The position numbers and the translations under genes were made by a program. Shown here in pieces: positions 2,651 through 22,518 of a DNA stretch of 37,104 nt. How positions within the stretch are numbered: position 1 is the stretch's first letter; every line of letters starts with the position of its first letter. The notes under the pieces were generated by a model that did no database searches, had not been told where the DNA came from, and worked only from the letters and a program-made list of their open reading frames with translations. The stretch comes from Candidatus Omnitrophota bacterium. GTDB taxonomy: Bacteria > Omnitrophota > Gorgyraeia > Tantalellales > Tantalellaceae. The DNA lies in NCBI GenBank assembly GCA_043822245.1, contig JBDRBY010000030.1:1-37104 (forward strand). The letters are read 5' to 3'.

Positions 2651-3033
2651 GGGGTGACTAGCGCTTTTTTGATTTTTTCTAATAGTTTTTGCGGGGTGAA
2701 GGGTTTTACTACGTAATCCGCGGCGCCGAGTTCCGCGGCGCGGGATACGTCGTTATTTCGCGTTTTAGAAGTGAACATAATAACCGGGATATGTTTGGTC
2801 TTTTCGTTATCTTTTAGCCTCGCGAGCGTTGTAAGGCCGTCTGTTCCGGGCATCATAATGTCTAATAAGATTATATCGGGTTTCTCTGATATTGCCTTAT
2901 TCAACCCTTCTTCAGAGTTAAGCGCCGCGCAGGTTTTATATCCGCTCGCTTCAAGCCTAAAAACTGCCAAATCAATCAGATCCTGCTCGTCATCAATTAG
3001 TAAAATGTTTTTTTTGAGCGATAATACGGCCAT
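2647..3033 (-). CDS. Single-domain response regulator (CheY-like receiver)
   Basis: 128 aa. It has NILLIDDEQD, a phospho-acceptor Asp context ILLDIMMPGTDG, and a conserved Lys in VVKPF. Confidence 0.9.
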   Translation of the reverse strand: MAVLSLKKNILLIDDEQDLIDLAVFRLEASGYKTCAALNSEEGLNKAISEKPDIILLDIMMPGTDGLTTLARLKDNEKTKHIPVIMFTSKTRNNDVSRAAELGAADYVVKPFTPQKLLEKIKKALVTP

Positions 3034-4490: not shown

Positions 4491-5894
4491 CTATCTGCGG
4501 ACTCTTAAATTCTTGGGCAAATTAACGGTAAATTTACTGCCTACTTCAACTTCGGACTCAACGATTATATCTCCTCCGTGTATGTCTATTATGTCCTTGG
4601 CAATCGCGAGGCCAAGGCCTGTTCCTTCAATTTTACCTTTTACGATTTCTTCTACCCTCTTAAATCTGTCAAATATCTTGTCAAAATCTTCCTTAGGGAT
4701 TCCGATTCCGGTATCAGCGACACAAAGTTTAATTGAGCTATCTAAATTCACAAGGCTTACTTCTATTTTTCCCTTTGGAGTATTATACTTTATCGCGTTA
4801 TCGATAAGATTAGTAACAACCTGGGAAAGCCTGTCTTCATCTCCCCATATCTCTACTTTTTCACGCGGCAGTTTATGATTCATGAGTTTTATTTGTTTTT
4901 GCTCGGCTAAAGGTTTCAATGTTTCAATGGCTAAATTAACCATTCCGGCCACATTGAAAAGCGACCTTTTCATTGTTTTCCGTTCCGCTTCAGACTTGGA
5001 AAAATCCAGCAAGTTATCAATCAATCGGTTCAAACGGTCAATATTTTTTTCAGCTAGCTTCAAAACCTTTTTCTGCTTATCCGTTACTTTACCCGTTATC
5101 TCATCAAGCATAATCCCTACCGACTCCTTTAACGCGGTTAATGGAGTTTTTAACTCATGAGAAACATTAGCTATGAAATCAGCCCTCAATTCATCCAGCT
5201 TTTCCACCTCTTCCCGCAAGCCAGCATTCACAACTGTTGCCGCGGACGCGTCCGCTATTGTTTTTAACAAGCTTAGGTCTTCTTCATCAAACGGCGCCCT
5301 GGATATCTTATTGTTAACGTTTATCACGCCAATAACTTTATCCCTTGATTTCAAAGGCACACTCAACAACGAATTGGTATGGTAATTGCCACTTCTTTTC
5401 TGAAATCTTGAATCTTTGCTGATGTCTTTTATTAGAAGCGGCTCGCCCGTTTGAGCCACCCATCCTGAAACGCCTTCGCCTAATTTCACTTTTCCATTTT
5501 CCGCTGCCTTACTATCAAGCCCCTTTGCCAAACGCATTACAAGTTCGCCCTTGTTTTTACTTACAAGCATAAACGATACTATCTCAACGGACATAATTTG
5601 AGAAATCTTATCCACAAACAGATTAAGAGTATCTTCAAAACCATTGGCTTTTAGGATGTCTTCACTTACGGAATAGGCAACCTTAAGCCTAAACAAATCC
5701 CGCTCTAAAGACCGCCGGGTTTGGCTTCTCAAGGCCCGTCTCAAAGCTTTCAAGCTGATTGGGGAAATCTTCGCCCTATTTTTCCAGGCCTTGTACCAAA
5801 CAGCTATCCTGCTAAAAATTCCAAACCGTGGGGGCGAAAAATTATTCGTTCCCGCGAATTTCGCGCGGTATTTGTTTTTAGGGAATATAATCAT
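4491..5894 (-). CDS. GAF-domain sensor histidine kinase
   Basis: It has a GAF-like region (EDTLNLFVDKISQIMSVEIVSFMLV...), a HisKA H-box FIANVSHELKTPLT, and a HATPase_c domain with DNAIKY, VADTGIGIP and GTGLGLAIAK. The exact start is uncertain because the N-terminal ~60 aa may be non-coding. Confidence 0.82.
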   Translation of the reverse strand: MIIFPKNKYRAKFAGTNNFSPPRFGIFSRIAVWYKAWKNRAKISPISLKALRRALRSQTRRSLERDLFRLKVAYSVSEDILKANGFEDTLNLFVDKISQIMSVEIVSFMLVSKNKGELVMRLAKGLDSKAAENGKVKLGEGVSGWVAQTGEPLLIKDISKDSRFQKRSGNYHTNSLLSVPLKSRDKVIGVINVNNKISRAPFDEEDLSLLKTIADASAATVVNAGLREEVEKLDELRADFIANVSHELKTPLTALKESVGIMLDEITGKVTDKQKKVLKLAEKNIDRLNRLIDNLLDFSKSEAERKTMKRSLFNVAGMVNLAIETLKPLAEQKQIKLMNHKLPREKVEIWGDEDRLSQVVTNLIDNAIKYNTPKGKIEVSLVNLDSSIKLCVADTGIGIPKEDFDKIFDRFKRVEEIVKGKIEGTGLGLAIAKDIIDIHGGDIIVESEVEVGSKFTVNLPKNLRVRR

Positions 5895-7972: not shown

Positions 7973-9358
7973 TCATTCTTCATAAACAAAAGAAAAGTCG
8001 CTCATAACACGGGAATCGGCATTTCTTCTCATGTAATCTATATAGTACCTCGCCATACCCGCCAAATTGGTGGTAGAATCGATTTCAATTACTTTTTGAA
8101 GTTCGCTGTAAGCCAACGAACGATTATGGTAGTAGGTGTAGTAACTAACCGCAGTGTTATAGTGCGCGGTTTGATCATCCGGCTTTATTTTCAATATCCC
8201 TTTGCACTCTTCCAAGGCTTTGTCATACTCCTTTACGGTTGAGTACATATAACACAAATAATGCAGAGTTGATACATAAAAATCAATTGTCCCCTTGTCC
8301 ATTTTCGGAAGAGTTTTCATCTTCTCTTTAAAAGCGGAAAACTCTTCTACCCCTTTTTCAAACTTTTGTTCAAAAAAATAGGCCTTGCCCAGCCATAAAC
8401 GCGATATAGGATAATCCGGGGCCATTTTTACGGCTCTTTTAAAAAGTTTTACCGCCGCTTTTCTGTTTTTCTTTTCCCAAAAAACCTGTCCCAACTGAGT
8501 AATCGCCGCGTAGTCACCGGGATTAAGCGATATCCTCCTCTTACAAATCTCTTCCGCTTCCAAGAGCCGCCTCTTGTTGATTAAATCAGCGATATCTTCG
8601 TATTTTTTGGGAAGGGCCTGCTTTATTTTTTTTAGCCGGGAAACCTCAGAGTTGTCTTCATCTACTTCTTTTTCAAGATAGAGATTTATCGCTTTTTGAT
8701 AATTCTCTCCCGCCTCATCAAACTTTCCCGTAGCTGTTTGACAATCCGCGATAACTTTATATAACTGAATGTTTCCCAAATCCAGCGTTACCGCTTTTTC
8801 GTAATCTTCTATGGCTTTTCCGTAAAGCATTGCGGAATAATACACATTGCCTGAAAGTTCGTATATGCCCGGCACATCCGGCGTATTTTGCTTAAGCCAC
8901 ATTACGTGCGGCATTACGATAGCCGGGTAATAATACTTCGCGCCCATAAGCTTATTAAGCATAACCAAATGCCCGCTCATGATTAAATTTCGTTCCTTGG
9001 CGGATTCTATTGTATTAAGCACTCCTTTATTTTTTTCAATTTTTGACATAGCATAAACCCGTAATTCCTTAAATTCTCCCGAATTATCCATATTTTCGGA
9101 TTTTTTAAAATACTCGCTGGCGTGTTCATATTCCATAAGCCCGTAAAGCGCCACTGCCAGGTTCATGCATACTCTAGCGTCGAAAGGAGAGGATTCAAGC
9201 ATCAATTTCAATTCAGCGGCAGAATCTTTGTAATTACCCTCTATCAGCATTGACCGTTCGATATCTTTCACGCGTAAAGACAGGCCCTCTTTATCGCAAA
9301 AAGCCTGTGGGCAGATTAGAATTGCTGACAAAAATATCATTACAACTATTGTTTTCAT
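7973..9358 (-). CDS. Secreted or periplasmic TPR-repeat protein
   Basis: It has an N-terminal signal peptide (MKTIVVMIFLSAILICPQAFC) and multiple TPR-like helical repeats, rich in Y, A, L and K with a ~34-aa periodicity. Confidence 0.72.
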   Translation of the reverse strand: MKTIVVMIFLSAILICPQAFCDKEGLSLRVKDIERSMLIEGNYKDSAAELKLMLESSPFDARVCMNLAVALYGLMEYEHASEYFKKSENMDNSGEFKELRVYAMSKIEKNKGVLNTIESAKERNLIMSGHLVMLNKLMGAKYYYPAIVMPHVMWLKQNTPDVPGIYELSGNVYYSAMLYGKAIEDYEKAVTLDLGNIQLYKVIADCQTATGKFDEAGENYQKAINLYLEKEVDEDNSEVSRLKKIKQALPKKYEDIADLINKRRLLEAEEICKRRISLNPGDYAAITQLGQVFWEKKNRKAAVKLFKRAVKMAPDYPISRLWLGKAYFFEQKFEKGVEEFSAFKEKMKTLPKMDKGTIDFYVSTLHYLCYMYSTVKEYDKALEECKGILKIKPDDQTAHYNTAVSYYTYYHNRSLAYSELQKVIEIDSTTNLAGMARYYIDYMRRNADSRVMSDFSFVYEE

Positions 9359-9399: not shown

Positions 9400-9810
9400 T
9401 TAAAATCTGGCTATCACATAATCCACAAAACCCATCCCCACATAGATTAAATTATACAGATGATGCATGATAATCGCAATCATAGTCGAACCTGAAAATA
9501 TTACCGCAATGTTCCCTATAATTTTAGCTTCCACAAACACTGAATCAAACGGTATCCGCGCGAAGAGAGGATTTGTCCAACTGATCAGATTCAATATTAT
9601 CGTGTGTATGTGTATTGTGAGGTAATAAAACAGTTTTGGTTCTTTGGTAAGAATAAAAAAATGCGGCCATAAGAATTTCAGGACATTCGAGCCTAGATGG
9701 AAAGGATCATTAAACAAAAAAACACCGATAATCCCCGTCAAGACCAAAACATCCAAGATGGCCAAGCGTACATCACTTGATGTTTCCTTGGAACAATAGG
9801 CAAGCTCCAT
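9400..9810 (-). CDS. Hypothetical small integral membrane protein (~4 TM)
   Basis: Hydrophobic ORF. The track ORF 9400-9996 extends through two REP copies, whose translation gives DAINRVST and DAINLVST, so the real start is probably the internal Met at ~9810 or a non-ATG codon below 9899. Confidence 0.4.
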   Translation of the reverse strand: MELAYCSKETSSDVRLAILDVLVLTGIIGVFLFNDPFHLGSNVLKFLWPHFFILTKEPKLFYYLTIHIHTIILNLISWTNPLFARIPFDSVFVEAKIIGNIAVIFSGSTMIAIIMHHLYNLIYVGMGFVDYVIARF

Positions 9811-9898
9811 ATTGATATAATACCACGTTATGATGAAAAGAGGAAATATTTCCGGAAAGTGCCCATAATATGTTACACTATCGGAGGTGGTTATGTTT

Positions 9899-9974
9899 GT
9901 GGAGACAAGATTTATCGCGTCTTTACATTTCAGAATCATATCCGGCGTAGAGACGCGATTTATCGCGTCTTTAC
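9899..9974. repeat. REP-like pair at 9899-9926 (degenerate) and 9948-9974, plus a partial copy at 10062-10070
   Basis: GTGGAGACAAGATTTATCGCGTCTTTAC and GTAGAGACGCGATTTATCGCGTCTTTAC. Confidence 0.85.
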
Positions 9975-10097
9975 GTTTCGGGCGAGGGAAGGACAATCGC
10001 GGGAAGTTATCGGCAAAGGCATGCCTTTGCCCTCCGTTGCATCGCGTTATTTTTCCATCATGTAGAGACGTACTTGCGTAATGCTGATGAAGATTTT

Positions 10098-10358
10098 TTA
10101 CATATCACCTATGTTAATAATTAAATCCGCGGTTTTTTTACGCAGGCCCGCGATGAAATGGCACTTTTTGCAATCAAAATTGTTGCTATCATATTTTGAG
10201 CAGGAAAAAAGCACATTTACCGCTTCTTGTAATTCTTTCGCGAATTTCGTTTTTTCCCGCGCTTCATCCTCTTTATTGATTTTATCTACCAGGGTATTTA
10301 TCTTTTCCTCACGTTTCACGAATATAGGACATCTAATCTTAGATTCTTCCCTATACAT
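10098..10358 (-). CDS. Hypothetical small Lys/Cys-containing protein (86 aa) at the distal end of the gvp cluster
   Basis: ORF with a C-X7-C-X2-C-H motif (CSKYDSNNFDCKKCH). The region is AT-rich. It is on the same strand as the neighbouring genes. I found no recognisable family. Confidence 0.3.
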   Translation of the reverse strand: MYREESKIRCPIFVKREEKINTLVDKINKEDEAREKTKFAKELQEAVNVLFSCSKYDSNNFDCKKCHFIAGLRKKTADLIINIGDM

Positions 10359-10378: not shown

Positions 10379-11059
10379 TTATTCAACAGGCGCGGTGAGA
10401 TATTCGGTCAATTTTTTGAATTCTTCTTTATCCCGGTTGAGACAAAGAAACAACCTTTGATACTCCCTTACTTTATTTACCCGTTTTATTTCAATTACAC
10501 GCATTCTTTTAGACAATTTAGGCAAAATGTTATGATACGCTCCCATAAACAGTATACCGGTATGTTCGTCATCTAAAGTTTCACATATCCTTTTAATTAC
10601 GTAGTCGTCCCTCTTTCTAAGTAGTCCGTTCTTTACCATTTTATAGGCGAAATAAGCTATTAATTTGCTAAGAACAGTTTTAGCGCGGCTGATTCTAACA
10701 ATACAATCCCTTTCTTTTTTGACAAGAGAAAAATCCTCTGTTTTCACTAAAACCGCTCCACGCTTAAGAAAAGAGGCGACCAACTCATAGTTTTTGCTGG
10801 CTAATTTTACTCCTTCTTCAACTATCGCTCTAGCCACTTCGCCCTCAGCTATCATTCCGTCCTGATAGATTTTCATCCCTGATACATTCATAGAATCAAA
10901 ATACCGTGCCAGACTATCCCAAAAACTTTCTACGGCTTTTAAATGTTGATCCCAAAAATCCCTGCCTAACTCAGCGATCCCTTTTTTGCTGACATCCTCA
11001 GCCAAGGAACCCATATCCGCGTTTGTGTGTATAACAGGAACATAAATAAGTGTTCTCAT
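10379..11059 (-). CDS. Hypothetical protein (226 aa), directly upstream of and co-oriented with gvpJ
   Basis: Long clean ORF. It is separated from gvpJ by 10 nt. I did not recognise a family. Confidence 0.6.
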   Translation of the reverse strand: MRTLIYVPVIHTNADMGSLAEDVSKKGIAELGRDFWDQHLKAVESFWDSLARYFDSMNVSGMKIYQDGMIAEGEVARAIVEEGVKLASKNYELVASFLKRGAVLVKTEDFSLVKKERDCIVRISRAKTVLSKLIAYFAYKMVKNGLLRKRDDYVIKRICETLDDEHTGILFMGAYHNILPKLSKRMRVIEIKRVNKVREYQRLFLCLNRDKEEFKKLTEYLTAPVE

Positions 11060-11069
11060 AAAAATTTGT

Positions 11070-11369
11070 TTATTTTATTTTGGCTTCCAAATTCTCTAAT
11101 CTTTTTTTTAATTTTTTATTCTCATTTTCAATTTCTTTATCTTTTGCCTTTGAAGATAAATAGCTATCCTGTTGCCACCAATTTATTCCCATTTCCATAG
11201 CTTTATCAACTGAAGCTATCAAAAGCCTTATCTTTATATTAAGAAGATCAATATCAGCAAGTCGAATCTTAATATCTCCGGCGATTACAATTCCTTTATC
11301 TAAAACCCGCTCTAAGATATCAGCAAGATTGGTAGCTTCAGTAGCATGCATCATTCTTTGTTGTGTCAT
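11070..11369 (-). CDS. gvpJ: GvpJ/GvpM-type gas vesicle protein (GvpA-family core plus a charged coiled-coil C-terminal extension)
   Basis: LADILERVLDKGIVIAGDIKIRLADIDLLNIKIRLLIASVDKA matches the GvpA/J/M hydrophobic core. Confidence 0.82.
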   Translation of the reverse strand: MTQQRMMHATEATNLADILERVLDKGIVIAGDIKIRLADIDLLNIKIRLLIASVDKAMEMGINWWQQDSYLSSKAKDKEIENENKKLKKRLENLEAKIK

Positions 11370-11386: not shown

Positions 11387-11710
11387 TTACATTAAATTTC
11401 CTAAAGGGCCTAAATTTATGTTCAGGTCTTCATCTTTTACGTCAAAAATCTTTTTTAACTCATCCATCTTATCTTCCAACAACATCAATGTCTCCCCTAT
11501 TCTTTCTACTTCTCTATCGGTAAGAGATCCGCCGTCAACTCTTCTCATAGCCTGTTTTTCCAGAAGCCTTCTTATCAACTCTACAAGCGTAAGAACCAAT
11601 TTTCCTAATCCTTTTTCTACATCTTTAGGATCAAGATTGATCCTCCCGGGATTAGAATTTTCTATTTCCGACGGATCTTTAGCAATTATCGCTATGGATG
11701 ATTTACTCAT
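11387..11710 (-). CDS. gvpK: Gas vesicle protein GvpK
   Basis: GLGKLVLTLVELIRRLLEKQAMRRVDGGSLTDREVERIGETLMLLE matches the conserved GvpK core. Confidence 0.85.
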   Translation of the reverse strand: MSKSSIAIIAKDPSEIENSNPGRINLDPKDVEKGLGKLVLTLVELIRRLLEKQAMRRVDGGSLTDREVERIGETLMLLEDKMDELKKIFDVKDEDLNINLGPLGNLM

Positions 11711-11711
11711 T

Positions 11712-11930
11712 TTAAGTCGATTCCCTCATCGGGCCCTCAAGCGGAGCGCCTCTTGAATTCTCCATAGTTTCTACCGAACTAAGCATAATCCTTAATCCTA
11801 TGTATATGAGGTCCACGTCGGCAACAGAAATAACTATGTCACCGGACGCGACCATCCCCTTCTCTAAAACCCTATCTAAAATCTCTAACAGGGTTACATC
11901 TTTGGTTTTCGCGTGAATGTCCGTTGTCAT
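11712..11930 (-). CDS. Second GvpA-family small gas vesicle protein (GvpA2/S/M-like)
   Basis: LLEILDRVLEKGMVASGDIVISVADVDLIYIGLRIMLSSVET. It lies 1 nt from gvpK. Confidence 0.8.
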   Translation of the reverse strand: MTTDIHAKTKDVTLLEILDRVLEKGMVASGDIVISVADVDLIYIGLRIMLSSVETMENSRGAPLEGPMREST

Positions 11931-11937
11931 CTCAGGT

Positions 11938-12771
11938 TTAAGACCTTTCGTCGCCTGGTTTTATAAATCCATCACAAAAATTATACGCCGGCCAAGGGCC
12001 TGTCCAATCAAATTCTAAACCTTTAGGAACATACCTTGATTTTAGATATGCTATGGTATTGTCAAATTCTTTTATTCTTTTCTTATTTATCAAAAATGCC
12101 GCGTTTAAAATCATTTTTTCTTGTTTTTGAGTTATTTCCGCCGGTAACAGTTTGTTAAGCTTCGCGTTCTGGGATAGTTTTTCTAATCTGTTAAAACTAT
12201 CCTGAGTAAATTCAGAAATTTTTTTATCTAAAACATTCTTTACAATGTCTTCTCTCTTCTTTCTTAAAAAAAACGCCCTCCCTTTGCCGCTAGACGCGAT
12301 CTCATCGTCAATCTTTTTAATGTCCTCATTTTCTACGGGAAGGGTGTCACTGATTCTTTTGGGATCGCAATATATCTTTAGCCCCCACTCTTCCTTACCG
12401 TTTAATTCTTCTATCGTCCTTCTAAATTCCGTACCGCGCGCCTTAAGCAATTGCAGTACGTTTTCTTCAGTATTGAAAATCGTGCCAAATTTAAAAGGCA
12501 AAACCGTTGTCTCTTGTACAATTCTTTCTATCACATTCTCATGCCGCCTAACCTTTTCCTCAAGCCAATTCATATCGTCTAAACCTTTTTTAAAATTTTC
12601 CTCATCGAATTCGTTTGAGGAAACCTCGCTAATAACCGCGCAAATACCCTGAAAATAAATTAAAGCCAATTTAACGCCTATATCTTTGAAATCATTACAA
12701 ACCGGCTTTGATTTCGTAATACAGTATAAATAAGTCAGTTCTTTTTCTTCGCTCATCGCGCACCCCGCCAT
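11938..12771 (-). CDS. GvpF/GvpL-family gas vesicle assembly protein (paralog 1)
   Basis: The N-terminus (YLYCITKSK...) and the overall length and pattern are typical of GvpF/L, including FKFGTIF, VLQLL and a KEEWGLKIY motif. Confidence 0.82.
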   Translation of the reverse strand: MAGCAMSEEKELTYLYCITKSKPVCNDFKDIGVKLALIYFQGICAVISEVSSNEFDEENFKKGLDDMNWLEEKVRRHENVIERIVQETTVLPFKFGTIFNTEENVLQLLKARGTEFRRTIEELNGKEEWGLKIYCDPKRISDTLPVENEDIKKIDDEIASSGKGRAFFLRKKREDIVKNVLDKKISEFTQDSFNRLEKLSQNAKLNKLLPAEITQKQEKMILNAAFLINKKRIKEFDNTIAYLKSRYVPKGLEFDWTGPWPAYNFCDGFIKPGDERS

Positions 12772-12789: not shown

Positions 12790-13041
12790 TTACGCCTGGC
12801 CTTTACGCTCATACGACTCAACTTCTAAACTATTATTCAGTTTAACAACATAAATATTTCTGTCCTGCACTCTTGTGGAAAGGCCTAAGGATTTGATAAA
12901 CGAGCTTTCCTCATATACTTCCGCCTCAGTTTCCCAGCCGTTACCGCTCACAGCCGCCTTGATCACTTTTACATCTTTAACACTAAGAGTCTTTTTTAAA
13001 AATTCCGCCGATGCCTTTCGGGCATTTTCAATGTCCGCCAT
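12790..13041 (-). CDS. Hypothetical small protein (83 aa) embedded in the gvp operon
   Basis: Clean ORF whose stop overlaps the gvpG start by 1 nt. No recognised family. Confidence 0.55.
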   Translation of the reverse strand: MADIENARKASAEFLKKTLSVKDVKVIKAAVSGNGWETEAEVYEESSFIKSLGLSTRVQDRNIYVVKLNNSLEVESYERKGQA

Positions 13042-13280
13042 TATTCTCCCCCCTCTTTACTCTCTCTGATAGAATCTAACCGCGCTAAAAGTTCTTGCTC
13101 TTGTTTTTTATATTCCGCTTCGGCTATTTCATCCATCTCAAAACGCATCTGTAATTCCATAAGTTTCTCTTTTATCCGGCCTTCGTCAGAAAATTCCTTT
13201 TCCACAAGATCGTTAATCTTTTTACCTATCCAAGTCACACCGTTTATAGGCATAAACAATAGGTCATCAATCAAGAACAT
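13041..13280 (-). CDS. gvpG: Gas vesicle protein GvpG
   Basis: The N-terminus MFLIDDLLFMP and the charged helical tail (EAEYKKQEQELLARLDSIRE) match GvpG. Confidence 0.8.
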   Translation of the reverse strand: MFLIDDLLFMPINGVTWIGKKINDLVEKEFSDEGRIKEKLMELQMRFEMDEIAEAEYKKQEQELLARLDSIRESKEGGE

Positions 13281-13281
13281 A

Positions 13282-14046
13282 TTAGTATTCCTTTGTCTCT
13301 ATCGTTATACTCACAAAATTGAACGGAGGAAGCGTACCTACATACTTAAACTTTATCTTGTCTCCATATTTTTCGTCAAGCTGTTGGATATTCCGATCAA
13401 ATTCCGCCTCTTTGTTTTTGACTACCAAAAAAGCGGCATTTATGATCATCCTTTCACCATAGGTATCATTTATCTTTACATTCTCCGCTAAAGGGCTTAG
13501 GGCATCCAACATTGCTTTTTTATATTTTTCCTTTTCCTCATTCAGAGCCTGTTCCACCAAATTTCCAATCTCCATACGTTGGTAATAACTCTTTGCCGGC
13601 GGCACAGACACTATTTCCTGCTTAAGCTTTTTAATCTTCTCATATCTTTCCAATATTTCTTTGTAAATCATGTCTTCTCTAAATATCGCCTTAAGCCCTA
13701 GCTCCTTTTTATCTCTAACCTTATTAAAAAGTTCTTTAAGTTTATCGTATTCCCTTGCTAATATCTTCCTGATCTTTTCCTCATCTTCAGCAATTGTGGC
13801 AAATCTTACAGGCAAAACTGTACGCGTTTTCATTACTTCCTCAATCGCCTTTTCATGGGCAAACGCATTTTCACTCGAAATAGCGTATTTTTTAATCGGG
13901 GAATTACTGACCACAGCCGCAATATCGTTAAAACATACCGTATAAAGAACATCTCCCCTGCCTCCGATGCCTAAAGGGCCAAAAGATTGAACCTGATTCG
14001 AATCAATTATGCAGTAAATATATTTGCCCTCGTTCATTTTTCCCAT
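13282..14046 (-). CDS. GvpF/GvpL-family protein (paralog 2)
   Basis: KYIYCIIDS...FGPLGIGGRGDVLYTV...AAVVSNSP...LPVRFATI. Confidence 0.85.
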   Translation of the reverse strand: MGKMNEGKYIYCIIDSNQVQSFGPLGIGGRGDVLYTVCFNDIAAVVSNSPIKKYAISSENAFAHEKAIEEVMKTRTVLPVRFATIAEDEEKIRKILAREYDKLKELFNKVRDKKELGLKAIFREDMIYKEILERYEKIKKLKQEIVSVPPAKSYYQRMEIGNLVEQALNEEKEKYKKAMLDALSPLAENVKINDTYGERMIINAAFLVVKNKEAEFDRNIQQLDEKYGDKIKFKYVGTLPPFNFVSITIETKEY

Positions 14047-14813
14047 TCCTCGGGGTATATAGCAAGATTAACAAAATTGAATACCGGTAAGGGGCCCGCG
14101 TATAGAAATTTTACTTTCTCTTTACGGCGTTCGCTTAAATCATCCATTATGTTATCAAACTCTTTTTCCCTGGCTTTAGAAATCAAAAAAGACGCGTTCA
14201 TAAACATCTCTTCACTCATATTATTGTTAAGCCTGTAATCCACCGCTAATCTCTTTAAGATGTTTATGATTTCTTCCGCAGATTCTTCTTTTTTCTTACC
14301 AAGTGCCTGCTCAACCATCCTGCCCAATTCCACTCCATCTTGGATATCTTTCTTGCCCTTATGATTTTGTATGTTTTCTTTCGCATCCTTAATCATTTTG
14401 TTTTCGCGCGCAATTTCCTTAAAAATCGCGTACATATTCTTCCATATCGCTTTGACGCCTACTTCTACCTTGTGATCCATATCTTTCAGCGCGTTTTTAA
14501 ATTCCCGGCCCCTTCTATCTAAAAGATTCCTTATTTCATCGGCATTTGAAGCAAGCGTGCCAAACCTAACCGGAAGCACACTATCAAATTCCTTCATCAC
14601 TTCCTCAATTACTTTCTGATGAGCCAGCATATTCTCCCGATTTACAACAAATCTACCCATAGGATGATTACTGACAACCATACTCAAATCGTCGTGCCCA
14701 ACAGTTAAAACCTCATCGTTTCTGCCTCCGATGCCGATAGGCCCAAAATTTCGCTCTTGTTTTGTCCCGATAACGCAATAGATATATTTTCCTTCTTTCT
14801 CCAGAATACTCAT
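14034..14813 (-). CDS. GvpF/GvpL-family protein (paralog 3)
   Basis: KYIYCVIGT...FGPIGIGGRNDEVLTV...LSMVVSNHP...LPVRFGTL. It overlaps the downstream paralog by 13 nt. Confidence 0.85.
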   Translation of the reverse strand: MSILEKEGKYIYCVIGTKQERNFGPIGIGGRNDEVLTVGHDDLSMVVSNHPMGRFVVNRENMLAHQKVIEEVMKEFDSVLPVRFGTLASNADEIRNLLDRRGREFKNALKDMDHKVEVGVKAIWKNMYAIFKEIARENKMIKDAKENIQNHKGKKDIQDGVELGRMVEQALGKKKEESAEEIINILKRLAVDYRLNNNMSEEMFMNASFLISKAREKEFDNIMDDLSERRKEKVKFLYAGPLPVFNFVNLAIYPEEWEK

Positions 14814-14815
14814 AC

Positions 14816-15874
14816 TTAATCCTTTATTTTGACCAGTACCGCGTTTTTATTAAAATCTTTCTCATCAAAGAAACATCTGTCAATATGCCCTTCCTGCATG
14901 CATGCTCTGTAATATTCGATAAGTATCTTATGCGCCTTAGTTATCTCGTCAAATTCTCCCTCTTTACTTTGTATCCCGGAATTTTTGTCCGGATGCGCGG
15001 AAAGCGACAAAGCATGATGCGCTTTTTTAATTTCTTCTTCGGTTGTAACATCGTTCAGCCCGAATCTTTTTTGAGCCCAGATTACTTGTTCAAAATTTAT
15101 CTTCTTTATCTCCAGAGTGTAAAAACTATACGGCGGAAGAGGGCCTATACATCTGAATTTTAGTTTTTCATTAAATTCAGCATTTAAGCCCTCTACCTCA
15201 TTATCAAAATCCTTCCGTTTTGTTTTGTCTACCAAAAAGGCGCAATTCATAACCATTTTATCATCCATGCGTTCTCCGGCCCTAAAATCCTCGCTTAGTC
15301 CGCTTAAACAAGCTACAAGACGAGAACTGTGCCCCTCCCTTCGCTCATCTAACGCTTTCTTAACCATAACTCCTATTTTCATCTGATCTTCCACGGTCAC
15401 GCCTCCGGGATTGGATAAGGCTATTTGCTTGTATCTACTGATTTCTTCCCGCTTTCCGATCTCATTGAGAACCGCCGTAAAATCACTCCATGTAACGGCG
15501 ACATCAATCTCTATCTTCCCTGCCGCTTTTTTAAACACATCCTTTATGAGGGGATATCCCTTCCGTAAGACATCTTCAACATGGCTGTCCTCTTGAGCAA
15601 ATGTACCAAGCCGCATAGGAATAACCGTATGCTCCAAAGCCATTATCCGCTCAAGCACTTTCTGATGCCTGACCAACAGCCTGGCTAGAGCGTCTCTGTG
15701 CAGACAAGCACATTCAACAACCGGCAAGTCACATACTACGGCAGAAATATCCCGATAAGGAATTGTATAAACTAAATCAGTCCCCGTTTTTTCTACTGAC
15801 TCCATAGGAACAAAAAGGCGCATCCCCGCGTTAGAGCCTACTACGCCATAAATATATCTGCCTATTTCACTCAC
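14816..15874 (-). CDS. GvpF/GvpL-family protein fused to a C-terminal DnaJ-type J-domain (paralog 4)
   Basis: The N-terminal ~250 aa is GvpF/L-like (RYIYGVVGS..., IPMRLGTF). The C-terminal ~70 aa is FGLNDVTTEEEIKKAHHALSLSAHPDKNSG...ITKAHKILIEYY, which has the HPD motif and the J-domain helix II/III pattern. It apparently starts at a GTG. Confidence 0.8.
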   Translation of the reverse strand: MSEIGRYIYGVVGSNAGMRLFVPMESVEKTGTDLVYTIPYRDISAVVCDLPVVECACLHRDALARLLVRHQKVLERIMALEHTVIPMRLGTFAQEDSHVEDVLRKGYPLIKDVFKKAAGKIEIDVAVTWSDFTAVLNEIGKREEISRYKQIALSNPGGVTVEDQMKIGVMVKKALDERREGHSSRLVACLSGLSEDFRAGERMDDKMVMNCAFLVDKTKRKDFDNEVEGLNAEFNEKLKFRCIGPLPPYSFYTLEIKKINFEQVIWAQKRFGLNDVTTEEEIKKAHHALSLSAHPDKNSGIQSKEGEFDEITKAHKILIEYYRACMQEGHIDRCFFDEKDFNKNAVLVKIKD

Positions 15875-15956
15875 CCTTTACGCCTTCTTTCTTTTTAGAC
15901 TTGCGTTTGAATTTACTGCTCAAGAATCCTTTGATCATTTTTAAAATTTTAAACAT
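15867..15956 (-). CDS. Candidate 29-aa Lys-rich micro-ORF ([29 protein letters not shown]) bridging the CDC48-like and GvpF/L-J genes
   Basis: I translated it by hand. Its ATG overlaps the CDC48-like TAA stop by 8 nt, and its TGA overlaps the GTG start of the downstream gene. A GGAGG lies 5 nt upstream of the ATG. It is too short for the ORF track. Confidence 0.3.
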
Positions 15957-18102
15957 CTCCGCCTCCTTTCTGATTATTGAGTAAGTTAATCGCATCTTTA
16001 AAATGTCTCATGGCTATCTCTAGTCGCGGCTTCCCTCTGCTTGGTAATGACCGGCCGTTTATATATTCTCTTATTGCAAGCATAGCGGCCTTGCGGCAAA
16101 TAAATTCAATATCAGACCCTACTTTTTTATCCGTCTCTTTAGCGAGGCTCTTAAAATCAACATCCTCGGTAAGTGGTTTATTCCTAGTATGTATTTTGAA
16201 AATCTCTTCTCTGGTTTCCTCACTCGGCACGGACAGTTCGAATAAAAGGTCAAATCTTCCGCTTCTGAGCAAGGCCGGGTCAATTAAATCTATCCTATTG
16301 GTAGCGGCTAAGACCACCACTCCTCTAAGCTCTTCAATACCATCCATCTCTGTTAAAAACTGGCTTATCACCCTTTCCGTGACATGCGTACCGGTAGAAT
16401 CCGAACCGCGCCTGGGCACAAGGCTGTCTATCTCATCAAGAAAAAGTATTGTTGGCGCCGCTTGCTTCGCCTTTTTAAATATCTCCCTTACGCCCCGCTC
16501 CGATTCGCCGACATAACGATTCAAAAGCTCAGGGCCTTTAACAGAGATAAAGTTTACTCCGCTTTCCGAGGCAACCGCTTTGCCCAAGAGTGTTTTCCCC
16601 GTTCCCGGCTTACCATAAAGCAAGATTCCTTTAGGCGGCGAGGTGTTCGCTTTTTTGAAAACATCAGAATATTTAAGGGGCCACTCTATTATCTCTTTAA
16701 GTTCTTCCTTGACATCCTTAAGGCCCCCCACGTCACCCCATTTTACATTCGGCACTTCAACAAAAACTTCTCTAATAGCCGAGGGTTCTACCTCTTTCAT
16801 GGCTGCTAAAAAATCATCCATGGTTACTTCCAATTCCATCAAAGTCTCATAGGGGATATCAGCCATTTCAAAATCGATTTTAGGCAAAATCTTCCGCAGA
16901 GCCGCCATTGCCGCTTCTCTTGCTAATGCCTCCAAATCCGCTCCCACAAATCCATGAGTTATTTCCGATAACTTTTCTAAACCAACATCTTTTGCTAACG
17001 GCATACCTCTGGTATGAATTTGAAGCACCTCGTATCTCGCGTTTTTATCAGGGATAGGAATGGATATTTCTCTATCAAATCTCCCCGGCCGTCTTAGAGC
17101 CGGGTCTATAACATTTGGCAGATTGGTCGCGGCGATAACAATAACGTGGCCTCTGGATTCCAATCCATCCATTAACGCTAAAAGTTGAGAAACTACTCTA
17201 CGCTCAACCTGTTTTTCAGCGCCCATGTCTTCTCTTTTCGGAGCGATTGCCTCAATTTCATCTAAAAAGACGATGCTCGGAGCGTTGGCCTGGGCGTTTT
17301 GGAATATTGAACGTAAACGGCCTTCACTTTCTCCATAAAATTTTCCCATAATCTCCGGGCCGCTTATGCTGATAAAACACGCGTCAGTCTCATTCGCTAC
17401 TGCTCGGGCAATTAACGTTTTTCCCGTACCCGGGGGGCCATAGAGGAGTACCCCTTTGGGCGCGCCAATACCCAATCTCTCAAACACCTGAGGATATCTT
17501 AAAGGAAGCTCTATCATCTCTCTAATCCTTTGAATCTGCGTAGTGAGCCCGCCAATATCTTCATATGAAATCTTAGCCGGGCCCGCTTCCTTAACTTCCT
17601 CTACCTCAATTTTTATGAGGGTAGCCGGGCTTATTGAAACTATACCGCCGGGAACAGTATCCAATACCTTAAAATCACAAGATTTTGAACCAAAAAGCGC
17701 GGCTCTAACTCTGTCGCCACAAGTTACCGGCAGTCCTTCTATGAGAGAACCTATGTATTTACTGTCTTTGTCCTTCTGAAGAGAACCTGATAAAGTTAGC
17801 GGTGAAAGCCTGATTTTGTCCGCGGGTTTACAAACAACTTTCTTGATTTTTATCTTTTCATCTAATCCAACCCGCGCGTTTTCGCGTAAGATTCCGTCAA
17901 TCTGCGCGATCTTTTTTCCCCTTTCTTCGGCATAGCAGAGCATTACCTTAGCCGGAGTCTCTCTTTTTCCTTTAATCACCGCGATATCACCCGCTTCTAA
18001 TCCAAGGCTCTTCATATCTTCCGGATCGAGCCTGGCAACCGCCCTGCCTACATCCTTTGATAATGCCTCTTTTACTTTTAGTGTTAACGAATTGGCCGTC
18101 AT
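15949..18102 (-). CDS. CDC48/VCP-like double-ring AAA+ ATPase
   Basis: 717 aa. It has a CDC48 N-domain-like N-terminus and two AAA modules with Walker A motifs GPPGTGKTL and GKPGTGKTL, Walker B motifs FLDEID, and SRH regions ([22 protein letters not shown] and [19 protein letters not shown]). Confidence 0.9.
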
Positions 18103-18638
18103 TTCTGTACTCTAATTTCTAATATCCCGTTCCTATAATTTGATGTTAGGGTTTTGGCTTGAACTTTAGCCGGCAATAAGACTTCTTTGCGGTATTTTCT
18201 ATCCTTACTCACTGCTTTTATTTCCAATATATCCTCTTTTAAATCCAAGGAGATAGCTTCCTGTTTAACTCCCGGCATCTCCGCCATAACAACCACTTCA
18301 TCTTTCTCATTAAATATGTCAACAATCGGCTCTCTTTCTTCTTCAACCTTTGGCCCTTTAGGGGTTTTTTTAACATTACCAAAGGGTTCAACCACAGTCT
18401 TACCTCCCATGGCTGTTTTTACCGAAAACCCAAAAACCCCTTTCATGCCCTCTTTGAGACGGCCCAGGTCTATTTCTCCTTCTTTTTTAACTTCTCCTCC
18501 GGCCTCTTTTAAATCCCCTGCCAAATCAACTAATTTCTCAATACCACGGAATAATCCGCCTAAGCTTAATTTCCCTATACCAAAATCAAGATCTAAATCC
18601 TGTTTTTCGTTTTTGGTTTTTCTTTTGCCCTTGTTCAT
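18099..18638 (-). CDS. Hsp20/alpha-crystallin family protein with an N-terminal Lys/Gly-rich extension
   Basis: The C-terminal alpha-crystallin domain is [38 protein letters not shown]...[25 protein letters not shown]. It overlaps the CDC48-like start by 4 nt. Confidence 0.8.
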
Positions 18639-18694
18639 TTTCTTCCCCCCATTTCGCCTACATTTTTAGATTTTTCGAACATGAACCGTTTTTA

Positions 18695-18721
18695 TAGAGA
18701 CGCGATAAATCGCGTCTCTAC
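18695..18721. repeat. REP-like palindrome
   Basis: TAGAGACGCGATAAATCGCGTCTCTAC. Confidence 0.9.
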
Positions 18722-18737
18722 TGTACAAAACACAGCC

Positions 18738-18958
18738 CGCGAAATACCGCGCGACGTAAAAAACGTAATTCGCGAAACACCGCGCACCGTAAAAAACGTA
18801 ATCCGCGAAACACCGCGCACCGTAAAAAATGCAATCCGCGAAACACCGCGCACCGTAAAAAATGCAATCCGCGAAACACCGCACACCGTAAAAAATGCAA
18901 TCCGCGAAATACCGCGCGACGTAAAAAACGTTGCCAGCGAAATGTCGCATACCGTAAA
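18738..18958. repeat. 33-bp tandem repeat array (6 full units plus 1 degenerate unit) bracketed by REP hairpins
   Basis: The units start at 18738, 18771, 18804, 18837, 18870 and 18903. The consensus is CGCGAAACACCGCGCACCGTAAAAAATGCAATC. The outer units are the variant CGCGAAATACCGCGCGACGTAAAAAACGT..., giving an A-B-B-B-B-A arrangement. All six reading frames are open across the array, so the listed ORFs (18666-18950, 18681-18968 and others) are artefacts. Confidence 0.9.
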
Positions 18959-19027
18959 GACGCGATAAATCGCGTCGCTACCTTATATAATATGGCGCAC
19001 CGTAGAGACGCGATTTATCGCGTCTCC
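18956..19027. repeat. REP-like pair at 18956-18981 (degenerate) and 19002-19027
   Basis: AAAGACGCGATAAATCGCGTCGCTAC and GTAGAGACGCGATTTATCGCGTCTCC. Confidence 0.85.
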
Positions 19028-19037
19028 TTTAACCGAA

Positions 19038-19343
19038 CTAATAGCTTAGAGAGAACGTCTTAAGAGGTTTTGTGGTTAATTTTACAGAGGGTTTAACCTT
19101 TTTCTCTTGCGATGTTTCTTCTTGAGAATTTTCAATTCGTTTAAGAATTTCATCTAGTTGTTTTTCCGCCCTATCTTTCCTCTTACTTAAGCCAAACACC
19201 TCTTTTTCCAATCTATCCTTTTCTCTTCTGAGAATGTACAGCTCCAAATAACCCGATCTTTGGATTTTTGGGATAGAACCCGTGCCTATGCTATGAATAC
19301 TCTTTATATCACTAGTCCCTGCGATTTGTAACATCCCTTTCAT
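19038..19343 (-). CDS. Hypothetical charged/coiled-coil protein (101 aa), downstream of and co-oriented with gvpN
   Basis: Clean ORF 15 nt after the gvpN stop. No recognised family. It has a GvpG-like charged helical character but a different N-terminus. Confidence 0.55.
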   Translation of the reverse strand: MKGMLQIAGTSDIKSIHSIGTGSIPKIQRSGYLELYILRREKDRLEKEVFGLSKRKDRAEKQLDEILKRIENSQEETSQEKKVKPSVKLTTKPLKTFSLSY

Positions 19344-19358: not shown

Positions 19359-20330
19359 TTATACGAAAACTTCATCAACTTTTAGTGTCTCTTCCTCTGT
19401 AACCTCTCTGATAGCGCATACTTCGACCAACCCTTGAACTATATCTTTTACCTTGGATTGATTCGTCTTTGACCCGACCCTGCTTGTCTCAGACGCTAGT
19501 ATATCCTGGCATATTTGCGCGAAGGCCTTGTTCGATTTCCCCGGAGATATGTTCAGCACTTTAAGAGTTTTAGCGATCATAATACATCCGCGGACTGTCG
19601 GCGCGAATTCACATTTTCCGGATTCTCTCAATCCTCTCACAATATTCACTATCGTTTCCGCGTATCTTTTGGAAAGCTTAGATTTTGCCCGGGTTATAGC
19701 CACCTCCGTCTCATAATCAAAACAATCTAAATCCATTGTTATCATCCTGTCCCTCAAAGCGTCCTGGCTTCTGTGGACTCCGGCATATTCCTCCGGGTTA
19801 GAGGTAAAAATAGCGGTAAAATTAGGGTCAACCCTCAAATATGGTTCTTCACCGCCCCGCCCCACCGGCAAATCCATCATCTTTTCCTGTAAAATGGAAA
19901 GAAGGATATTGTTTGCCTCAGGCCGTGAACGGGTAAATTCGTCATAAATCAAAGTGAACCCGTATCTGCAAGCAACTGTTAAACGATTATCTACCCAGCG
20001 TTTTACCATATCTTCTTCTGTTTTTAACACCCTGGAGATAAACCTATCCACTACTTTTCTAACCCTGTAACCATATTCACCACCGACTAAATCCGATGTA
20101 GTAAATTCTTCATCTCCATGAATCATCACAACGGGCCTCGCTATTTTGCCGGCAATGTGCATAGCCATAGTAGTTTTGCCTGTACCGGAAACTCCCCGAA
20201 AATGAATGGGAAAACCCGCTTTAATGTAGGAAAGGGCTCTTCTGGTAACATCTTTGACGTATTTCGTCTCCACAAAGTCAGGTAAAGCGCTGGGTTCCAG
20301 CACTGTTGTCATTTCATCTATCATTTTCAC
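19359..20330 (-). CDS. gvpN: GvpN AAA+ ATPase (CbbQ/NirQ/GvpN family)
   Basis: 323 aa. It has the Walker A motif GVSGTGKTT, a Walker B motif LIYDEF and a MoxR/CbbQ-like arrangement. It follows the A-C-N gene order seen in other gvp clusters. It starts at GTG 20330, or at ATG 20324. Confidence 0.88.
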   Translation of the reverse strand: MKMIDEMTTVLEPSALPDFVETKYVKDVTRRALSYIKAGFPIHFRGVSGTGKTTMAMHIAGKIARPVVMIHGDEEFTTSDLVGGEYGYRVRKVVDRFISRVLKTEEDMVKRWVDNRLTVACRYGFTLIYDEFTRSRPEANNILLSILQEKMMDLPVGRGGEEPYLRVDPNFTAIFTSNPEEYAGVHRSQDALRDRMITMDLDCFDYETEVAITRAKSKLSKRYAETIVNIVRGLRESGKCEFAPTVRGCIMIAKTLKVLNISPGKSNKAFAQICQDILASETSRVGSKTNQSKVKDIVQGLVEVCAIREVTEEETLKVDEVFV

Positions 20331-20486: not shown

Positions 20487-21176
20487 TTATTTCTTCTTTT
20501 TTTTGTTTTTTTTCGCGCTTTTTCTGGATTTTGTGCTTTTCTCCGGCAAACCTTCTTCAAGAACATCTCTACTTTTTCTGGATTTTGACAAAAGGAAACT
20601 CACACTCTGCCATGCCTCTTTTGCTCCAGACACATCTCTCTTGTATTCACTCATAACCTTTCGCGTACTACTCACTATACTCTTTACTTCTTTCGCGAGC
20701 TTAGACCTTAATTGTTTTTCCATTTTATCCCGATCGTCACGAAATGTTTCTAAAAGCGTTTCTACTTTCTTTTTCAGTTCCCCAGCAAACGTTTTCAATT
20801 CTTTGGAAAACTTCGCGAAACTTTCCGCCTGTTCCTTGCTCATCTCTTTACGGTTTTTTCGAAACACCTTAAGCATCGCGGCCACGTCTTCAGACAAAGC
20901 CTGGAAAAAATCATCTAACACTTTCGCCTGTTCCTTCCCCATTTTTGTTCGATTCTTGCTGAACGTCCCAATCATATCTCCCACGCTCTCTGACAAATTT
21001 TTGGCAAAATTAGCCAAATTTCGAGCCTGCTCTGAACCCATTTTTTTCCTGTCCGAAGCAAATTCCTTTAAGGTGTCATGAGTATCTGACATTATCCCCC
21101 CCAGTTCTTTTACCCGTACGTCACGCGAAGCAATAACATTTTCCGCAATTTTTTTCATTTCATCCGCCATTCCCAT
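20487..21176 (-). CDS. GvpC-like repeat protein (about four ~33-aa amphipathic repeats and a poly-Lys tail)
   Basis: The repeats are DTLKEFASDRKKMGSEQARNLANFAKNLSESVGDMIG, TFSKNRTKMGKEQAKVLDDFFQALSEDVAAMLK, VFRKNRKEMSKEQAESFAKFSKELKTFAGELKK and KVETLLETFRDDRDKMEKQLRSKLAKEVKSIVSS. The start was reassigned to the ATG at 21176, which is preceded by AAAGGAGG (MGMADEM...). It sits between gvpA and gvpN, as gvpC does in cyanobacteria. Confidence 0.72.
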   Translation of the reverse strand: MGMADEMKKIAENVIASRDVRVKELGGIMSDTHDTLKEFASDRKKMGSEQARNLANFAKNLSESVGDMIGTFSKNRTKMGKEQAKVLDDFFQALSEDVAAMLKVFRKNRKEMSKEQAESFAKFSKELKTFAGELKKKVETLLETFRDDRDKMEKQLRSKLAKEVKSIVSSTRKVMSEYKRDVSGAKEAWQSVSFLLSKSRKSRDVLEEGLPEKSTKSRKSAKKNKKKKK

Positions 21177-21284
21177 TTTTCCTCCTTTTGTAAGTTTTGG
21201 TATTGTCAAAAGTTTATACCCAAATTTTTCTTAATCCTTCGCATTTAAAACAGTTATCTAAGATTAACTTCTCTCCCCCCTTAA

Positions 21285-21532: not shown

Positions 21533-22141
21533 TTACAAAGTATTTCTACTAAACTTCCTCCACTCTTTTTTTATTTTAAACTCTTCCAGCATGGATTTGA
21601 GGTCTTTTACTCTGAGCTCTCTTCCTTTGGCTAAAAGATTCTTAAGCCTCTTCGACATTACCTGCTGTTCTTCTCTAAATTGCTTTAGTTTAACGGTAAC
21701 TTCTTCTTTCCGCACGTCTTGCTGAGAAAGAATCCGTTCAATTAAAACCTGAAAGTCTTTAATTCTTTTAGTTTCTCCCTTACTAAGGTCATCTTTTACT
21801 GAAGTCAAATTACGAGCTAACATATGCGCCATTTCTTTTTGTTCCGTTATGTACCCATTCAACAAACTTTTTGCTTCTTTTTCTTTTTCCTTTTGAGCCC
21901 AAACAATCTCTTTCATCATATTGTCAAAATCTTTTTTCCGAAGAGAACTGATCTTCGCAAGGCTTTCTCTCAATTCCATAGTAACTATTTCTCTTTCTTG
22001 TCTCGCATCGAGAAAGGAATCCTGAAAACTCCAGAGAAACTGCTCTCCTGTATCAGCGGCCGCCTCTATTCTGTCCATCTTAGCGACATAAGAACTAACA
22101 ACGTTCTCAACAATACCATGTATACCCTCTCTTGAAAGCAT
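21533..22141 (-). CDS. Coiled-coil protein, a paralog of the GvpC-like repeat protein
   Basis: Its C-terminal segments KDFQVLIERIL...KQFREEQQVMSKRLKNLLAKGRELRVKDLKSMLEEFK share the F-R-x-x-R/Q-x-x-M-S-K motif and periodicity of the 20487-21176 protein. Confidence 0.6.
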   Translation of the reverse strand: MLSREGIHGIVENVVSSYVAKMDRIEAAADTGEQFLWSFQDSFLDARQEREIVTMELRESLAKISSLRKKDFDNMMKEIVWAQKEKEKEAKSLLNGYITEQKEMAHMLARNLTSVKDDLSKGETKRIKDFQVLIERILSQQDVRKEEVTVKLKQFREEQQVMSKRLKNLLAKGRELRVKDLKSMLEEFKIKKEWRKFSRNTL

Positions 22142-22271: not shown

Positions 22272-22478
22272 TTACGCGGCTGACGCTGTTAACCCAATAG
22301 CTTCCGCATACTTCAGATAAGTCTCAACTGATGCCACCACAACTCTAGCTTCGATAGCGAGTATTTCAATACCCACCAAAGAAACTCTTACCCAAGCATC
22401 AACCACAACACCCTTATCCAGGATACGGTCGACAACTTCAACCAGACTCGACGAACCGATTGCCTTTTCTACAGCCAT
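22272..22478 (-). CDS. gvpA: Major gas vesicle structural protein GvpA
   Basis: [63 protein letters not shown] is near-identical to the canonical GvpA core. The ATG at 22478 is preceded by GGGAGGAGGTGAGAAAA. The track's extra MRK comes from an upstream GTG. Confidence 0.95.
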
Positions 22479-22518
22479 TTTTCTCACCTCCTCCCATTTT
22501 AGAAATTAAAGGTCAAAA

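Follow-up and report, generated by a model that had tools for sequence, protein, structure and literature searches.

A GvpF/GvpL-type gas-vesicle protein fused to a C-terminal J-domain: a candidate link between Hsp70 and gas-vesicle assembly

A gas-vesicle operon located on a 37,104-nucleotide (nt) stretch of DNA from a Candidatus Omnitrophota bacterium (GenBank assembly GCA_043822245.1, contig JBDRBY010000030.1, positions 1 to 37,104 of the forward strand, referred to below as the window) was found to contain a gene coding for a GvpF/GvpL-type protein that carries a DnaJ-like J-domain and a conserved tail at its C-terminus. We propose that this fusion protein is a class C J-domain protein whose GvpF body acts as client binder and which would bring the housekeeping DnaK to GvpA-family subunits, in a manner coupled to vesicle nucleation or growth; we put the probability of this reading at roughly 0.55. 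The architecture and the fold of the protein, its conserved Hsp70-contacting features, the purifying selection acting on it and its operon context are established by the analyses reported here. The gene and its parts are laid out as follows:

14816..15874, minus strand: fusion gene, GvpF/L body plus J-domain plus conserved tail, 352 amino acids (aa) plus stop, GTG start (open reading frame (ORF) listing)
15101..15874, minus strand: GvpF/L body, residues 1-258, two alpha+beta domains (Pfam PF06386, Foldseek)
14894..15100, minus strand: J-domain, residues 259-327 (Pfam PF00226, phmmer against PDB, AlphaFold2, Foldseek)
14987..14995, minus strand: HPD tripeptide H294 P295 D296, codons cat ccg gac (direct reading of the sequence)
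14819..14893, minus strand: conserved C-terminal tail, residues 328-352, with a beta-strand at its end (family alignment, AlphaFold2)

The start of the fusion gene is unambiguous: an in-frame TAA is met two codons ahead of it, a Shine-Dalgarno sequence (GAAGG) is found 9-13 nt upstream and the N-terminus of the protein agrees with the family consensus MxxxGKYIYGII. The gene ends with a TAA stop codon at 14816-14818, and the ATG of the next gene is only 2 nt away. A database protein of 100% identity (P0001) bears the name ‘GvpL/GvpF family gas vesicle protein’. The initial annotation, which had been made by reading the sequence alone, had described a full GvpF/L body attached to a C-terminal J-domain with an HPD tripeptide and the spacing of helices II and III, and had proposed a profile comparison as a check. 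Pfam analysis agreed on both parts. PF06386 (GvpL_GvpF) was matched by residues 5-252 over positions 1-244 of a 245-position profile (E = 4e-54, 184.6 bits against a gathering threshold of 23.6), and PF00226 (DnaJ) was matched above threshold by residues 272-319 over positions 7-54 of 63 (E = 2.8e-11, 43.8 bits against 27.8). The two domains are joined without any linker, and the peptide FGLNDVTTEEEIKKAHHALSLSAHPDKNSGIQSKEGEFDEITKAHKILIEYY, quoted in the initial annotation, corresponds to residues 271-322.

When residues 255-352 were compared by phmmer with all PDB sequences, the top match was the J-domain of E. coli DnaJ (E = 2.3e-7), aligned without gaps over 60 residues and with H294-P295-D296 placed on H33-P34-D35 of DnaJ; the spacing from helix II through the HPD loop to helix III is therefore canonical. 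The NCBIfam equivalogs for DnaJ touch the J-domain only and stay far under their cut-offs (TIGR02349, 28.7 bits against 377.2, over 49 residues), and the fusion protein is therefore not DnaJ itself. Pfam recognised PF06386 and PF00226 only, with no G/F region, CxxCxGxG zinc finger or DnaJ C-terminal domain in the fusion protein, which assigns it to class C (type III) of the J-domain proteins. The body, for its part, scored 82.2 against a cut-off of 350 with the GvpF equivalog NF052351 and 52.7 against 200 with the GvpL equivalog NF045778, and is best described as a distinct paralog clade leaning to GvpF, being neither a strict GvpF nor a strict GvpL.

A structural model of the fusion protein was built with AlphaFold2 on a 54-sequence family alignment. 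The full-length model showed a mean predicted local distance difference test score (pLDDT) of 92.1 and a predicted template modelling score of 0.83. Its J-domain comprises helix I (residues 261-270), helix II (279-293), the HPD loop and a long helix III (302-327); the last strand of GvpF ends at residue 258 and helix I begins at 261, so that the linker-less junction is reproduced in the model. A Foldseek search of the full model against the PDB returned the crystal structures of GvpF, 6L5D_B (E = 9e-15, target template modelling (TM) score 0.80) and 4QSG (E = 3e-13, target TM score 0.78). After the GvpF structures came 5NRO_B, the J-domain of E. coli DnaJ as bound to DnaK, with a probability of 1.00, a target TM score of 0.79 and a root-mean-square deviation (rmsd) of 2.1 Å over 59 columns at 32% identity, and below it many further J-domains. 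Residues 255-352 kept their fold when modelled alone (pLDDT 80.5), and the isolated J+tail module again gave 5NRO_B as the first Foldseek match (rmsd 1.1 Å over 52 columns, 35% identity), the other top matches being nearly all J-domains. The strand at residues 346-350 of the tail had a pLDDT of ~94 in the full model and of ~60 once the body was removed, and DSSP assigned strands of at least 3 residues in the isolated module only at 256-258 and 346-348. Owing to these strand assignments and to the loss of pLDDT without the body, the C-terminal strand appears to fold back on the GvpF body and to pair with its final strand, which would clamp the J-domain onto the body.

The residues by which a J-domain contacts Hsp70 are well conserved across the family. 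The HPD tripeptide was found in all of 193 unique family sequences and in 54 of the 54 sequences of the modelling alignment. Among the 193 sequences, the positions of K283 and K284 (equivalent to R22 and K23 of DnaJ) hold lysine or arginine in 93% and 89%, and the equivalents of DnaJ N37, F47, A53 and Y54 are asparagine in 96%, phenylalanine in 96%, alanine in 93% and tyrosine in 93%; the equivalent of DnaJ R27 is arginine or lysine in 66% of the family. Conservation in the same set extends into the tail (F336 82%, F341 84%, N344 87%, L347 91%, V348 92%), which has the consensus F-x-E-E-E-F-K-K-N-A-I-L-V-K-V-R-E. Ratios of non-synonymous to synonymous substitution rates (dN/dS), calculated by the Nei-Gojobori method at 80-91% identity, were ~0.06-0.20 for the J+tail module and ~0.11-0.25 for the GvpF body; the gene pairs come from related loci and are not independent of each other, and the trend was uniform. 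Overall these values indicate that J-domain and tail are under purifying selection, with a dN/dS not above that of the body. The C-terminal J-domain of the initial annotation is thus borne out by its Pfam match, its ungapped alignment with DnaJ, the structural comparisons, its conservation and selection.

The family of the fusion protein is large: 843 relatives came out of a word-indexed search through 5.8 billion proteins, and 120 of them were listed. All 120 listed homologs have both PF06386 and PF00226, at 47-80% identity, and they stem from NCBI, JGI, ENA and Logan assemblies. In a collection of species-representative genomes, 161 stretches encode a relative of the fusion protein, and the best 80 of these 161 (L001-L080) were used for the locus comparisons. 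All 80 come from metagenome-assembled genomes (MAGs) or single-amplified genomes (SAGs), with no isolate among them, and their labels cover at least 12 phyla. Planctomycetota (Pirellulales, Phycisphaerae, others) account for about 27 of the labels and Omnitrophota for about 15; the other labels are Nitrospirota, Nitrospinota, Ignavibacteriales or Melioribacteraceae, Elusimicrobia, Atribacterota, Aminicenantes, Latescibacter, Desantisbacteria, Sumerlaeota, Kiritimatiellaeota and others.

The initial annotation had allowed for an artificial fusion of two genes by a frameshift or a sequencing error. Such an error, or a misassembly, would have joined a GvpF gene with the gene of a small J-protein, and we give this explanation next to no credence. 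The fusion gene is one uninterrupted frame with a tight junction, and the artefact is ruled out by the presence of both domains in 120/120 listed homologs from independent assemblies together with the identical architecture, with HPD at the expected place, of 77/77 complete genes in the 80 loci. Three ORFs in these loci lack HPD: those of L074 and L077 are cut by the end of the contig, and the third is the N-terminal piece of a split gene in L072. The latter gene (L072:3831-4991, plus strand) is divided into ORFs of 136 and 202 aa within a rearranged cluster of a MAG labelled Pseudomonadota and is probably a frameshift or a pseudogene. An exhaustive phmmer search of 1.84 billion representatives with the J+tail module gave 206 matches at E ≤ 1e-3, and those covering the whole module either form the end of proteins of ~330-415 aa or sit in short proteins; five of the short ones (88-183 aa) were inspected and all proved to be truncated copies of the fusion, with the end of the GvpF body still present. 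Generic J-domains surfaced only at weaker E-values. A standalone or differently fused J+tail module was therefore not found among the 1.84 billion representatives, and the module appears to be specific to the fusion family.

The minus-strand gas-vesicle operon of the window spans from position 22487 down to ~9400, and its gene order recurs in the 80 related loci. Apart from the fusion gene, it contains, in the direction of transcription:

22272..22487, minus strand: GvpA, major shell protein and presumed client, encoded at the head of the operon (Pfam Gas_vesicle, 57.1 bits)
21533-22141 and 20487-21209, minus strand: two proteins, unknown or coiled-coil, without Pfam or NCBIfam family
19359..20330, minus strand: GvpN-type AAA+ ATPase (Pfam AAA_5, 66.5 bits; operon position conserved)
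19038-19343, minus strand: unknown coiled-coil protein of 101 aa, without Pfam or NCBIfam family
18099..18638, minus strand: Hsp20/GvpH-like small heat-shock protein (Pfam HSP20 34.3 bits, GvpH 28.2 bits, ArsA_HSP20; position conserved in related loci)
15949..18102, minus strand: Cdc48-family double-ring AAA+ ATPase, 717 aa (CDC48_N, CDC48_2 and two AAA domains; TIGR01243 926 bits against a cut-off of 802)
14034..14813, minus strand: second GvpF-like paralog, 259 aa (PF06386 213.5 bits; 31% identical to the fusion body)
13282..14046, minus strand: third GvpF-like paralog, 254 aa (PF06386 229.4 bits; NCBIfam GvpF model above GvpL model)
13041-13280, minus strand: GvpG (Pfam)
12790-13041, minus strand: weak GvpO-like protein (Pfam)
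11938..12771, minus strand: GvpL-like paralog, 277 aa (PF06386 207 bits; NCBIfam GvpL 96.7 against GvpF 51.7)
11712-11930, minus strand: GvpA-family protein (Pfam)
11387-11710, minus strand: GvpK (Pfam)
11070-11369, minus strand: GvpJ-like protein (Pfam)
10379-11059, 10098-10358 and 9400-9996, minus strand: three unknowns without Pfam or NCBIfam family

Of the 55 loci whose sequence reaches 2.4 kb or more upstream of the fusion gene, 52 have the Cdc48 gene directly before it; the gap to the next GvpF-like gene has a median of 1 nt (71 loci). With the three other GvpF/L paralogs of the operon, the fusion body shares 26-31% identity. Between positions 11938 and 15874 the operon thus holds four such paralogs, three GvpF-like and one GvpL-like with 26-41% mutual identity, where a pair is usual, and in some loci a fifth is present. 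The Cdc48-family ATPase comes on top of the usual GvpN ATPase and is outside the classical gvp gene set; the Hsp20 and Cdc48 genes share 4 nt, and this overlap points to translational coupling of the two. In one marine MAG (L068:4645-6364, plus strand) the place of Hsp20 and Cdc48 is taken by genes for a 126-aa zinc-finger protein and for an ATPase of the ArsA/Get3 type (262.9 bits). The former protein contains six CxxCxGxG motifs and matches PF00684 (DnaJ_CXXCXGXG) with 38.3 bits against 32.7, besides a match to Anti-TRAP. The fusion gene of this locus retains its J-domain and HPD, and the retention of the J-domain is therefore independent of Cdc48; judging by the replacement, the position ahead of the fusion gene behaves like a chaperone module that can be exchanged.

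No function other than stimulating the ATPase of Hsp70 is known for HPD-bearing J-domains. Haloarchaeal GvpF is the sole accessory protein that binds GvpA, and a complex of accessory proteins has been proposed to draw GvpA through GvpF (PMC7688916). GvpM, a GvpA-family protein, is bound by both GvpF and GvpL, and the Hsp20-like GvpH keeps it from aggregating (PMC6107691). Binding of this kind, and a need for the protein in vesicle formation, are documented for haloarchaeal homologs only (PMC7688916, PMC6107691). An excess of shell protein leads to proteotoxic stress in E. coli (PMC12848028). Because the J-domain has an intact HPD and because GvpF binds GvpA (PMC7688916) and, like GvpL, binds the GvpM that GvpH protects (PMC6107691), we favour a role of the fusion protein as adaptor of DnaK in vesicle assembly. 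In the mechanism we propose, the GvpF/L body would bind small, very hydrophobic GvpA-family subunits or the complex of accessory proteins, and the rigidly attached J-domain would dock on the ATP form of the housekeeping DnaK via its HPD loop and basic helix II. The J-domain would then trigger ATP hydrolysis by DnaK, which would clamp onto the subunit carried by the body, and the holding and release of subunits by Hsp70 would thereby be coupled to nucleation or growth of the gas vesicle. The fusion protein would work beside the Hsp20 holdase and the Cdc48-type unfoldase of the operon, forming with them a built-in proteostasis module. We infer here DnaK as the partner, GvpA-family proteins as the clients and assembly, not disassembly, as the direction of action. 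Delivery of GvpA-family clients to DnaK, which the initial annotation had already suggested, may reasonably be inferred for the fusion protein.

Several observations weigh against this proposal. The initial annotation had expected a four-helix J fold; the J fold, helices I-III and the match to 5NRO_B stood, but helix IV is not separate in the predicted structures. In both models DSSP assigned a single continuous helix, at 302-327 of the full model and at 49-73 of the isolated module, in the place taken in DnaJ by helix III, a turn and helix IV. Helix IV is dispensable for Hsp70 stimulation. Helix II is partly eroded in the protein of the window, in which H286, H287 and A288 replace Y25, K26 and R27 of DnaJ, the family majority at these positions being tyrosine, then arginine, lysine or glutamine, then arginine or lysine. 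The basic helix II surface that contacts Hsp70 is present, though weaker in the protein of the window than in the family consensus. Since the J-domain is attached without a linker and seemingly tied back by the tail in the model, its docking on DnaK could be restricted. No Hsp70 gene was found in the window by Pfam, and a tblastn search (E ≤ 1e-5) with E. coli DnaK as probe revealed none at a distance of up to 10 kb from the fusion gene in any of the 80 loci. Finally, the carriers are all MAGs or SAGs, and the production of gas vesicles from these operons is a prediction.

Two other functions have to be weighed against that of a DnaK adaptor in assembly. The fusion protein could act in the manner of auxilin, its GvpF body recognising the shell or misassembled or collapsed vesicles and its J-domain bringing DnaK to strip off or extract GvpA-family subunits, together with the Cdc48-type unfoldase and Hsp20, by analogy with disaggregation by small heat-shock proteins, DnaK and ClpB. 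The purpose would be quality control, recycling or a loss of buoyancy actively brought about. The evidence from the J-domain speaks for this as much as for assembly. The position of a Cdc48-family unfoldase directly upstream in 52/55 loci, with Hsp20 ahead of it, and the tight coupling within the operon favour it as well, and GvpF of Microcystis is reportedly associated with the gas-vesicle wall. The fusion gene nevertheless lies in the middle of the block of accessory assembly genes and has the same orientation as gvpA, an arrangement suited to joint expression while vesicles are assembled, and L068 retains the fusion without Cdc48 or Hsp20. We consider extraction a serious alternative, although clearly the less likely of these two DnaK-dependent roles.

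A function without Hsp70 seems improbable to us. The J-domain would in that case be a structural or docking module, for instance for the Cdc48-like ATPase or another Gvp protein, or would stabilise the GvpF fold together with the tail. Near-invariant adjacency to Cdc48, the rigid linker-less attachment with a tail apparently pairing with the last GvpF strand, the merging of helices III and IV in the model and the lack of an Hsp70 gene in any of the neighbourhoods searched are all compatible with such a module. The invariant HPD together with the basic helix II and the equivalents of N37 and F47 is, on the contrary, the signature of J-domains that stimulate Hsp70, and HPD is retained in L068 where Cdc48 is missing. 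J-like domains without Hsp70 function typically lose HPD, and we know of no partnership between a J-domain and an AAA+ protein.

The comparison with known systems helps to place the adaptor that we propose. E. coli DnaJ (J-domain structures 1XBL and 1BQZ; with DnaK, 5NRO) shares with the fusion protein 32-35% identity over the J-domain, the HPD loop, the basic helix II, and the phenylalanine and tyrosine of helix III. The J-domain of the fusion protein is, however, C-terminal instead of N-terminal and is followed by a family-specific tail, and the C-terminal substrate-binding domains of DnaJ are missing. Class C J-domain proteins dedicated to one client include HscB, which passes the IscU scaffold on to HscA, and auxilin, through which Hsc70 reaches clathrin lattices. 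By analogy with these two proteins, the fusion of a J-domain to a client-specific domain may steer a general Hsp70 into a single pathway. No kinship with HscB or auxilin in sequence or fold exists outside the J-domain, the client domain being here a gas-vesicle protein, and in contrast to the hscB-hscA pair no dedicated Hsp70 is encoded alongside the fusion gene. The operon as a whole may likewise be compared with the network of small heat-shock proteins, DnaK/DnaJ and ClpB, in that genes for Hsp20, a J-domain protein and a double-ring AAA+ unfoldase stand side by side. Unlike ClpB, the AAA+ protein of the operon is of the Cdc48 family, which by definition lacks the DnaK-binding middle domain of ClpB. 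The components are moreover encoded in the operon of a structural organelle, and their cooperation is conjecture.

With GvpF and GvpL (PF06386; 4QSG from Microcystis, 6L5D from Anabaena; haloarchaeal proteins) the fusion body has in common the full-length domain and the two-domain alpha+beta fold, and its gene similarly sits in a gvp operon beside the genes for GvpF/L, GvpG, GvpK and GvpJ. By homology, a shared role as binder of GvpA-family proteins or as assembly platform is likely (PMC7688916, PMC6107691). The ~95 additional C-terminal residues of J-domain and tail set the fusion protein apart from any characterised GvpF or GvpL.

No J-domain, DnaJ or Hsp40 on a Gvp protein, and no role of DnaK in gas-vesicle assembly, was found in the full text of 7.7 million PMC papers and of bioRxiv, subscription-only literature lying outside this scope; within it, the link is undescribed, as the initial annotation had supposed. 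Gvp proteins are not mentioned in the main text of a survey of ~280,000 J-domain proteins (PMC10410713). Public databases already record both Pfam domains for these proteins. Both parts are thus familiar domains, and what is put forward is a predicted function in uncultivated carriers. It touches on a long-standing question, namely how the hydrophobic, aggregation-prone GvpA stays soluble and enters the growing wall, in which the roles of GvpF/L-type factors are still unclear. An intact J-domain on a GvpF paralog across many phyla turns the participation of Hsp70 in vesicle biogenesis or turnover, with GvpF-type proteins as client adaptors, into a testable hypothesis. The family adds a client-specific class to the bacterial J-domain proteins, and shows a widespread type of gvp operon that brings its own set of chaperones: Hsp20, a Cdc48-like AAA+ protein and a J-protein. 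In the heterologous hosts that serve for acoustic reporter genes, many gas-vesicle clusters are toxic or fail to assemble (PMC12848028), and the engineering of such clusters could be guided by their dependence on, or help from, DnaK and the chaperones of the operon.

A wider and rather speculative reading, which we think unlikely as it stands, would treat the Hsp20 holdase, the Cdc48-type unfoldase and the GvpF-J adaptor enlisting DnaK as a swappable proteostasis cassette. Such a cassette would serve both the ATP-driven insertion of subunits and their active extraction and recycling, in an auxilin-like manner on a protein lattice. If this were true, a gas-filled protein organelle would undergo regulated remodelling or disassembly, so far unknown for gas vesicles, and the zinc-finger protein and Get3/ArsA-type ATPase of L068 would represent a second solution to the same problem.

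A number of further observations were made on the operon and its surroundings. The fusion protein shows 41-55% identity among related loci, yet the order of the ~20 operon genes is constant in the longer loci, under at least 12 phylum labels. The pattern points to horizontal transfer of the cluster as a whole between anaerobic bacteria of waters and sediments, or to mis-binning of some contigs (for example those labelled Patescibacteria or Actinomycetota). GvpA is 88-94% identical in L068, L080 and L016, the loci for which values were listed gene by gene. In L016 a second, divergent Hsp20-like gene (L016:8709-9179, plus strand) lies between Cdc48 and the fusion gene. Several proteins without a significant Pfam or NCBIfam family are conserved in this type of operon: a 202-aa protein, a 240-aa apolipoprotein-like coiled coil, the 101-aa coiled coil and proteins of 226 and 86 aa. 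The 240-aa coiled coil may be an analogue of GvpC. For the 198-aa ORF at 9400-9996, also without family, no counterpart could be detected in the 80 loci.

Between the gene for the 101-aa protein and the Hsp20 gene, a 33-bp tandem repeat of ~6-7 copies (89% matches) occupies positions 18723-18958 and gives rise to spurious ORFs of ~94 aa on the minus strand (18666-18950) and the plus strand (18681-18968). The former had been considered as a small chaperone comparable to the zinc-finger protein of L068, and was rejected as a translation of the repeat. Downstream of the gvp operon and on the same strand, a TPR protein, a GAF-domain histidine kinase and a response regulator are encoded (2647-3033, 4491-5894 and 7973-9358), which are possible regulators of the cluster.

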